Shown here one piece after another: positions 3,496 to 4,054 of a DNA stretch of 4,394 nucleotides. The number at the start of each line of letters is the position of its first letter. The stretch's first letter is position 1. A program made the translations under genes and the position numbers. The notes beneath the pieces were generated by a model. That model searched no databases, was not told the DNA's origin, and was given only the letters and a program-made list of their open reading frames with translations. The stretch comes from Escherichia coli (GTDB lineage Bacteria > Pseudomonadota > Gammaproteobacteria > Enterobacterales > Enterobacteriaceae). The stretch lies in the NCBI RefSeq assembly GCF_044324785.1, contig NZ_CP172132.1; one strand, 5' to 3'.

Positions 3496-3560
3496 TCTTC
3501 CGCTTCCTCGTCGATTCGCTCGCTACGCTCGGTCATCGACTTGCGGCGAGCGGGATCACC
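3496..3560 (-). other. ColE1/pMB1-type origin-distal conserved block (primosome-assembly-site-like hairpin)
   Basis: The minus strand reads GATCCCGCTCGCCGCAAGTCGATGACCGAGCGTAGCGAGCGAATCGACGAGGAAGCGGAAGAG. I recall the pBR322/pUC block as GATACCGCTCGCCGCAGCCGAACGACCGAGCGCAGCGAGTCAGTGAGCGAGGAAGCGGAAGAG, about 80% identical, with the GCTCGC/GCGAGC hairpin arms preserved. A CAGGGGGC...GGTTCCTGG motif 3760-3781 on the same strand recalls the CAGGGGGG...GGTTCCTGG near the ColE1 RNA/DNA switch. This is a memory-based comparison, not an alignment. Confidence 0.5.
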
Positions 3561-4054
3561 TCTCGCATGTTGTCGGTGATCCCGTTGTTGTTCTTTCGGG
3601 GATGAGTCGTCAGATAGCCCTTCAAACACGCTCAGAAGCTCTCAGACGCACGAAACGGGTTTAAATGCCCGCCAGGGCATGGAAGGCGCGAAAAACGCTT
3701 ACAGAGGGTTTCAGGAGGCCAGGCGCGCCGATACCCTTAACCAGGGGCTTTCAGGTCGCCAGGAACCGCGCCAGCCCCCTGCAAAGCCTCTTTGCACGGT
3801 ACAGGCAGCTGCTCGGTTGGTAGGTGGTCGCAGACCGATGATGTTGCAGCGGTGGGGGTCTGGGGTTCTCCCCAGTCGGTTTCCGGTTGCGCTCAAGGCG
3901 CAGCCGGGACCGTGGCGGCTTGGTGGATTTGAGGCGCGTTTCCGGGTCTCTGCGGCAGTACCCCTGAAATTTCGCTCGCCGGAAACACGCGGGTGTTGTT
4001 TTAACGTGTCCCGGTAGCGGTGTCCAGGCAGGTATGCTTCCGCCAGCGGAGTTG

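Follow-up and report, generated by a model that had tools for sequence, protein, structure and literature searches.

A probable PriA-type primosome assembly site, homologous to that of ColE1, beside the Rep_3 iteron origin of a small mosaic plasmid of Escherichia coli

Background

The viral strand of phiX174 is the template on which the PriA primosome is assembled. Hairpins with tandem G.A pairs and GNA triloops bear the hallmarks of stable DNA mini-hairpins, and C-GA-GC[GNA]GC-GA-G is of a very stable type known from d(GCGAAGC). Priming signals of another kind occur in the plasmids R1 and R100, where Masai and Arai reportedly described, in 1989, a G-site (a G4-type ssiA) ~400 bp downstream of oriR. 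In R1, leading-strand synthesis starts at the G-site, which is used by primase alone. A palindromic ssi located next to iteron-like repeats is also found in pHW126, pIGRK and pIGMS31, all of them small, Rep-dependent enterobacterial plasmids. According to the literature, the ssi of pHW126-like plasmids is non-essential for replication, and its loss results in multimerisation rather than in a failure to replicate.

The system closest to the DNA described here is ColE1, in which ssiA (n'-pas), a PriA-dependent initiation site for the lagging strand, lies just downstream of the RNA/DNA switch (PMC3167613). pUC-type vectors have kept ssiA but not ssiB (PMC3167613). Two families of small plasmids also bear on this study: that of pIGWZ12, whose origin consists of iterons, a region rich in A+T and a set of four DnaA boxes (PMC6856555), and that of pKL1, whose oriV is located upstream of its repA (PMC3832669).

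In this study, a stretch of 4394 bp of E. coli DNA (hereafter the window) was compared with these systems. We propose, with a probability of roughly 0.7, that positions 3486-3564 form a phiX174-type (PriA-dependent) primosome assembly site, which is accessory to an adjoining iteron origin and homologous to the ssiA / n'-pas of ColE1/pMB1. The priming site is a portable accessory module and not an origin; elements of this kind are known, while this copy is new.

Results

The window contains one replicon, of the pIGWZ12 type

The window behaves like an entire circular plasmid of small size, with a single credible gene. This gene, repA (2341-3033, minus strand), is the sole rep gene in the window and codes for a Rep_3 initiator (Pfam Rep3_N, 4e-37; Rep3_C, 5e-19) with 99% identity to the pIGWZ12-type Rep of plasmid L003. 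A repeat search and a DnaA-box scan placed an iteron origin at 3128-3461, flanked by the priming site. It comprises four 22-bp iterons (3128-3215) upstream of repA and an AT-rich stretch in which GATC is repeated (~3216-3310); the DnaA boxes, all of them on the minus strand, occupy 3316-3324, 3332-3340, 3412-3420 and 3453-3461. Every part of a Rep_3 iteron replicon is accordingly present, from the initiator and the iterons upstream to the AT-rich region and the DnaA boxes, in agreement with the description of pIGWZ12 (PMC6856555), and the replicon belongs to the pIGWZ12 type, rep_cluster_1778. Over positions 2246-3553, the window is 94.5% identical to pIGWZ12-type plasmids of 4074 bp.

No PLSDB record or complete E. 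coli genome covers more than 68% of the window. Searches of the window for a second replicon of any recognised type, for a relaxase gene, and for sequence resembling the MOBQ4 oriT region or a ColE1-type bom were all negative. The cumulative GC skew reaches its minimum at ~3600-3700, a position that is confounded by the C-rich iterons and was left unused.

The similarity to ColE1 is confined to a single block

In a blastn comparison, positions 3495-3553 align with 1367-1309 of ColE1 (NC_001371, locus L004) at 83% identity over 60 nt, and this is the only similarity to ColE1 that blastn detects in the window. The Smith-Waterman score of the block is 69, compared with 21.7 +/- 2.4 in dinucleotide-type shuffles, a difference of ~20 standard deviations. 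The original prediction had put the identity of 3496-3560 to ColE1/pMB1 at about 80%; by global alignment it is 82% to pMB1 and 81% to ColE1, so the estimate holds. The predicted orientation was also right, in that the RNA II-sense strand of ColE1 corresponds to the minus strand of the window (blastn).

In ColE1, RNA I maps to 645-749 on the minus strand (Rfam), which puts the start of RNA II near 643 and the origin near 1198; the matching block must therefore lie 110-170 nt downstream of the origin. The identification of this block as ssiA rests on that position and on secondary literature (PMC3167613). Vector-derived copies recovered in a genome scan end exactly at the priming-site block.

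It had further been proposed that a second replicon, primed by RNA and of the ColE1 type, is fused to the Rep_3 replicon, with a highly diverged preprimer at 3680-4300. A functional origin of this sort would be RNA II-primed and Pol I-dependent, with its preprimer on the minus strand, and several features agree with it. The block is oriented as expected for an RNA II running leftwards from ~4300; a primosome assembly site, which in ColE1-type origins lies 60-170 nt downstream on the displaced strand, is present in the correct orientation; and the adjoining stretch is GC-rich and non-coding as claimed, with 55-64% GC over 3501-4300 and only spurious-looking open reading frames inside. However, the site is accompanied neither by an antisense RNA I gene, which in ColE1-type origins overlaps the preprimer at its 5' end, nor by a ~550-nt RNA II-like preprimer that ends at the conserved origin sequence of the RNase H / RNA-DNA switch. 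The Rfam model of RNA I (RF00106), which recovers ColE1 645-749 at 73.8 bits, has no match in the window at E<=1, and the 17-mer of the ColE1 origin has none in the window even with 3 mismatches allowed. Nor did the ColE1-like motifs that were said to follow in the expected order stand up: the best local Smith-Waterman score of 3570-4394 (minus strand) against ColE1 601-1300 is 23, which 55 of 200 shuffles equal or surpass, so that similarity to the preprimer and origin is no better than that of shuffled sequence. Words of the 'CCAGGAAC' type in common with ColE1 were discarded as short, chance matches. A scan for sigma-70 promoters found none in 3300-4394, but has no power here, as the genuine ColE1 origin gives none either. 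We consider a functional ColE1-type origin in this window extremely improbable.

A covarying hairpin is assigned to the minus strand

The core of the priming site, delimited by its identity to ColE1 and its conservation across plasmid types, occupies 3498-3553 on the minus strand. A covariance model (R1) matches the site at 3486-3564 on the same strand with 88.4 bits and finds no second priming site on either strand of the window. Conservation of structure was assessed in an alignment (A1) of 43 different copies, each given in the sense of the minus strand of the window; three short core segments were fixed by the search pattern, and their invariance in A1 is partly by construction.

The alignment reveals a covarying hairpin at 3511-3539 (minus strand). 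In its outer stem, 3511-3515 pairs with 3535-3539, the latter being columns 27-31 of A1 and the former columns 53-57, and all five pairs show compensatory changes, with such variants as TCGAT/ATCGA, CCTGT/ACAGG, CTCAT/ATGAG and GTCAT/ATGAC. The covariation score is 0.333, against 0.183 +/- 0.014 in shuffles, none of which (0/500) reaches it, and slid controls score at most 0.15. Enclosed by this stem is a mini-hairpin (3519-3531, minus strand) of the form CGAGC-GTA-GCGAG, in which G.A pairs stand in tandem and the loop is of the GNA type. One of its pairs is GC in 34 and AU in 9 of the 43 copies and is never unpaired; two other inner-stem positions are always G.A / A.G, forming the tandem purine pair; and the loop is GNA or GTTA in 36/43 copies, with all four bases occurring at N. 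The folding energy of the core by itself is no more than modestly better than that of shuffles (z = -2.1 to -2.8). As alternative pairings, the invariant CGCTCGC arm was matched with A1 columns 45-51 or 53-59; these are 94% and 86% paired, respectively, and were rejected for want of any compensatory change, a lack that arises in part because the search pattern fixed one of the arms.

The hairpin is followed by an invariant single-stranded tail, CGAGGAAGCGGAA (3498-3510, minus strand), containing the motif AAGCGG (the complement of 3500-3505). The core of this tail is invariant in a BLAST-derived alignment of 10 plasmid types, AAGCGG being part of the conserved core in 10/10, and the motif also occurs on the viral strand of phiX174. 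We take AAGCGG to be the hexamer common to n' sites.

Three features bear on which strand is folded. Read as the minus strand, the copies in A1 show G.A pairs, GNA loops and an excess of G.T over A.C pairs (16 versus 3); read as the plus strand, the same positions would set pyrimidine against pyrimidine, and they would give TNC loops and mismatched A.C pairs. On these sequence grounds, the folded strand appears to be the minus strand of the window, which by homology is the RNA II-sense strand displaced at the ColE1 origin.

Covariation alone cannot separate a structure in RNA from one in single-stranded DNA, so the hairpin could in principle act in a minus-strand transcript, or the block could be a double-stranded site for protein binding or recombination, as might also be suggested by mosaic breakpoints that fall on its edges (see below). 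Against both possibilities, tandem G.A pairs and GNA triloops mark stable DNA mini-hairpins, and the homologous site of ColE1 acts as single-stranded DNA. No Rfam family matches the block or the module beside it, relaxed thresholds over 3440-4100 giving chance-level matches only, and no credible Xer/cer-type core was found near the conserved GTGCGTA flank. Action as RNA or as duplex DNA is in our judgement very unlikely.

The complementary-strand origin of phiX174 offers a further comparison. Its viral strand carries, in the F-G intergenic hairpin, CCGAAGCGGTAA; the viral-strand mini-hairpin TGACCAAGCGAAGCG resembles TGACCGAGCGTAGCG of the core, and GAAGCGG is also found on the viral strand, in the F-G intergenic region. 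The covariance model, built from A1, gave a weak local match to TGACCAAGCGAAGCG (8.3 bits), on the viral strand only. The resemblance stays at the level of motifs: they come in another order, and nothing in the window corresponds to the long AT hairpin of phiX174.

A perfect 10-bp inverted repeat (3551-3560 and 3575-3584, within 3551-3600), found by the repeat search, adjoins the core; its loop of 14 nt is conserved, and it has a GTTGTTGTTCTTTCGG tail. Among ~18 variants from a metagenome scan, the arms vary more than the loop and a GTTGTTGTTC tail do, and no consistent covariation was seen. That this repeat is a plus-strand element was hinted at by G.T pairing in the IncX4 type, but the ~18 variants contain mixed mismatches and the idea was dropped.

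The site is shared by many replicons in a fixed orientation

The core, TTCCGCTTCCTCG...CTCGCT..GCTCGGTC...TGCGGCGAGCG, is kept in ColE1, IncX1, IncX4, IncI2, Col156/ColE2-like, pIGWZ12-like and pKL1-like plasmids. BLAST found it in 4748 PLSDB records. When one genome per species was scanned with a pattern, the core turned up in many Enterobacterales, together with vector contamination and a few chance matches. It adjoins at least seven replicon types (ColE1, ColE2-like, Rep_3 of the pIGWZ12 type, IncX1, IncX4, IncI2, RepL and the pKL1 type); a priming site of this kind is therefore not diagnostic of a ColE1 origin.

For a survey of context, every copy was oriented as in the window and neighbouring replicon genes were sought. 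In ColE1-type plasmids, RNA II and the origin are always on the right-hand side, on the minus strand, with 64-123 nt between them and the site (34/34 cases within reach). Rep genes of the Rep_3/IncX type always lie to its left, again on the minus strand (at least 18 cases from about four families), at distances of 465 nt in the pIGWZ12 type, including the window, 595-715 nt in IncX1 and IncX4, and ~1060-1220 nt in Arsenophonus plasmids with Rep_3/pi-like genes. The same succession of a minus-strand rep, iterons and DnaA boxes, and the site in plus orientation is seen in the Rep_3, IncX1 and IncX4 plasmids and in those of Arsenophonus, and pKL1 repA fits a layout with rep on the left and the origin between rep and site. 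ColE2-like rep genes are found to the right, their 3' ends 126-230 nt from the site, where ColE2 origins sit, and RepL genes to the right on the plus strand.

The survey also speaks to the proposal of a second, ColE1-type origin. Its outcome was bimodal: a copy of the site has beside it either an RNA II alignment of 376-561 nt (E<=1e-64), even for a site that has no more than 79% identity to that of ColE1, or nothing above chance. All 34 true ColE1-type loci are of the former class, with the alignment 64-123 nt away, while the window has none and is of the latter.

The priming site marks a junction between two plasmid families

The priming site and a ~380-bp hairpin-rich segment next to it make up a non-coding module (3463-3945) that is 92-98% identical to sequence in pKL1/Col(MG828)-type plasmids, which are 1.5 kb in size, and in a RepL plasmid; it is shared with L001, L130 (pKL1), L131 and L132. 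Within the module, 3565-3945 folds better than expected as single-stranded DNA (z = -3.9 on one strand and -3.4 on the other), and sub-segments of it adjoin rep genes in IncX4, IncX1-like, pNORD1_2 and Y. pestis pCKF plasmids. The window took from the pKL1 type only non-coding sequence (L001 606-1062). Both pKL1 repA (L001 1-477) and the region upstream of it (~1330-1538) are absent from the window, the position of pKL1 oriV falls outside the shared segment, and neither the RepA (HTH) gene nor the upstream oriV with Rep-binding inverted repeats that make up a pKL1 / Col(MG828) replicon is present.

Further to the right, a STAXI motif (Rfam RF01728) occupies 4098-4271 on the plus strand, with 78.9 bits (E = 4.6e-16) where the gathering threshold is 40.5; its homologue in L002 reaches 89 bits. 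The open reading frames at 3679-4017 (plus) and 3711-4298 (minus), which cross the module boundaries and the STAXI motif, were taken as spurious. The pKL1-type module and, on the opposite strand, the STAXI motif thus account for what had been read as a diverged minus-strand preprimer at 3680-4300; this is a further argument against a ColE1-type origin.

On the left, recombination has joined pIGWZ12-type to pKL1-type sequence at the flank CCGTGCGTATGTGCTCAA (3463-3480), which is conserved in several plasmid types. The pIGWZ12-type plasmid L003 follows the window closely up to ~3480, with few differing positions, and the pKL1-type plasmid L001 is identical to the window from 3462 onward save for one mismatch at 3472. 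Other pIGWZ12-type plasmids share both flanks with the window and carry a different allele of the site. Plasmid pGF4-F (L137), at 98.7% identity over 2298-3569, is essentially identical to the window up to ~3549, including the pKL1-type site allele, and departs from it directly after GCGGCGAGCGG. Comparison of flanks and alleles among these plasmids identifies the conserved edges of the module as crossover points. Sequence comparison shows that the segment 3463-3945 came into the window from pKL1/Col(MG828)-type plasmids, through recombination at the site's conserved edges. One parent of the mosaic is then the pIGWZ12/MOBQ41 group of Rep_3 plasmids (2246-3553, 94.5% as above), whose mob genes the window lacks, and the other the pKL1/Col(MG828) group (3463-3945), whose repA and oriV it lacks.

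Of the notion of a composite replicon, what stands is that the plasmid is a mosaic with a junction within the priming site, and what falls is a second replicon of the ColE1 type. A genuine composite replicon does exist in a relative of the window, namely pGF4-F, where a single site lies between a Rep_3 gene and a ColE2-like rep gene, the second rep being ColE2-like rather than of the ColE1 type.

The block might instead be the last, functionless piece of a decayed ColE1 origin. The pKL1-type donor plasmids carry a ColE1-type bom/oriT in the order found in ColE1, i.e. the priming site and then bom, so that an ancestral tie to a ColE1-like backbone is conceivable. But a dead relic would not be expected to show the structural constraint seen here (compensatory changes, invariant G.A pairs and GNA loops), nor to keep a fixed orientation beside the non-ColE1 origins of several families, nor to be swapped as a cassette between backbones. 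We hold such a relic to be quite unlikely.

Discussion

The alternative reading contained in the original prediction, that of a primosome assembly site retained for the iteron origin, is the one supported by the data, through homology, strand-specific conservation of structure and a fixed layout. Dependence of the site on PriA and its exact role at the iteron origin of the window are predictions, which we outline as follows. The active form would be the single-stranded minus strand, with a stem around the mini-hairpin C-GA-GC[GTA]GC-GA-G, and then the tail CGAGGAAGCGGAA. RepA and DnaA would open the iteron origin at ~3216-3310, and unwinding would extend rightwards for ~200-300 bp. The minus strand so exposed may then fold, and PriA (with PriB, DnaT and DnaC) would load DnaB and DnaG there. 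Primers laid down on the minus strand would be extended rightwards, away from the origin, as the leading strand of the rightward fork, and the loaded DnaB would travel leftwards, where it could set up or rescue a second fork. To our knowledge, iteron plasmids generally replicate without PriA; the site can therefore not be essential and should be accessory.

How the site is placed relative to the origin sets the window apart from ColE1. The two share 81-83% identity in the core, the same hairpin, the invariant tail and, by homology, the active strand of the element known in ColE1/pMB1 as ssiA, n'-pas or rriA. In ColE1, however, the origin is 110 nt from the site, which lies on the strand displaced by Pol I, i.e. 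the lagging-strand template. The window has no RNA II origin; its sole origin is on the other side, and the same strand becomes the leading-strand template. More generally, in ColE1 and ColE2 the origin would be on the side from which an arriving fork displaces the active strand and lays it bare as template of the lagging strand, whereas in the window and other iteron plasmids it would be on the opposite side, with the active strand serving as leading-strand template of the rightward fork.

A leading-strand role would resemble that of the R1 G-site, an analogy that departs from the ColE1 arrangement. In R1/R100, as in the layout proposed for the window, a signal on the leading-strand template a few hundred bp from a Rep-dependent origin would be exposed by unwinding. 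The two signals are unrelated in sequence, and that of the window is predicted to be of the PriA type rather than used by primase alone. The likeness to pHW126, pIGRK and pIGMS31 is one of layout, and their replicons are unrelated to that of the window.

The main role of the site could also lie in conjugative mobilisation, with complementary-strand synthesis being primed, in the recipient cell, on the strand that was transferred. Such priming is believed to be a function of the ColE1 site (PMC4595007). In pIGWZ12-type relatives the site is immediately next to mobC and oriT, and in pKL1-type plasmids it is ~220 nt from a ColE1-type bom. For relatives that bear an oriT, priming of the transferred strand after mobilisation is plausible. 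The window, however, lacks a relaxase gene as well as any similarity to the MOBQ4 oriT or a ColE1-type bom, and we consider it unlikely that mobilisation is the main role of the site here.

A broader proposal, which we put forward tentatively and regard as rather doubtful, is that the site is an orientation-locked start signal for Rep_3/pi-type origins, always positioned to offer its active strand as leading-strand template to the outgoing fork, and with a priming role opposite to that in ColE1/ColE2; that its edges are crossover points at which small plasmids are shuffled and fused; and that 3565-3945 is a further, undescribed single-stranded DNA module.

These results overturn nothing in known replication biology, but they do affect how such sequences are read. 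A good 60-nt match to the ColE1/pUC origin region does not mean a ColE1 replicon, because the block is a priming module that moves between plasmids and accompanies seven or more types of replicon; this also bears on flags of vector contamination. As for replicon typing, it seems to be the neighbouring non-coding module that triggers the label 'Col(MG828)', so that plasmids without the pKL1 rep receive it too. For the plasmids themselves, the survey yields a strand-specific signature, consisting of a stem, then C-GA-GC[GNA]GC-GA-G and then the AAGCGG tail, and an orientation rule by which D-loop origins (ColE1, ColE2) differ from iteron origins. It also provides evidence that the edges of the site serve as recombination junctions between small plasmids.

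The pKL1-type module and the Col(MG828) label

The non-coding pKL1-type module contains two 22-nt direct repeats, 40 nt apart, at window 3702-3723 (CAGAGGGTTTCAGGAGGCCAGG) and 3742-3763 (CAGGGGCTTTCAGGTCGCCAGG), as well as a GGCGCG...CGCGCC stem formed by window 3686-3691 and 3725-3730. The stem is retained in diverged homologues, and its loop is variable. The module, at window 3465-3945, is common to the window and to a 3083-bp RepL plasmid (NZ_CP100540.1), and the latter is typed as "Col(MG828)" though it is without the pKL1 repA. It therefore seems that what elicits the "Col(MG828)" call is not a rep gene but the non-coding module that the two plasmids have in common. 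This label is probably the typing outcome for the window too.

Other features of the plasmid

A clear STAXI motif (Rfam RF01728) lies at window 4098-4271 on the plus strand, ~480 nt ahead, across the circular junction, of an EFASI-like motif at window 357-510 (also plus strand), the score of which was just below the gathering threshold (48.6 versus 51.2 bits). pMTY9803_Col2 carries this same STAXI and EFASI-like pair, equally spaced, in the reverse orientation with respect to the Rep_3 backbone.

Inverted repeats of about 46-55 nt, at window 1197-1242 and 1455-1509, flank a ~210-bp segment. The ends of these repeats have 1,511 chromosomal matches in E. coli, and the one chromosomal match listed for them is annotated as "tail fiber assembly protein". 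The complete 326-bp inverted-repeat unit, at 99%, is found in six small plasmids only. The repeats look like the ends of an invertible tail-fibre segment of the phage type or, alternatively, of a miniature mobile element.

Two further stretches were observed. A long near-perfect hairpin at window 115-185 (gctgtgcgggcgtcacttt...aaagtgacgctcgcacg) surfaced only via a chance match to a microRNA family. The stretch at window 1560-1900 is very AT-rich (GC 22-33%), and holds an A14 run and the repeat "aataacaaaacc", which recurs at window 800-812.

The predicted primosome assembly site in other plasmids

A close relative of the window, pGF4-F (NZ_CP172223.1, 5333 bp), has two rep genes, one of the Rep_3 type and one ColE2-like. 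A single predicted primosome assembly site lies between the two; its distance is 465 nt to the start of the Rep_3 gene and 126 nt to the ColE2-like gene, measured at that gene's 3' end. pGF4-F is a real two-replicon plasmid, in which one putative priming site is common to both replicons.

Multiple copies of the site were also observed. In pNORD1_2 (NZ_CP139954.1), two mutually inverted copies, at 2265-2352 and 4254-4343, enclose a RepA-family gene, the layout expected if forks move out from an internal origin and each copy acts on the lagging strand of one of them. Arsenophonus nasoniae contigs (L105-L124) contain dozens of copies of one site variant, all in the same orientation (for example, at 2847, 4186, 5493, 6762, and 9411 of contig L110), which are spaced about every 1.3 kb and adjoin RepL-like and pKL1-RepA-like genes. 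These arrays look as if many small-plasmid units had been strung together.
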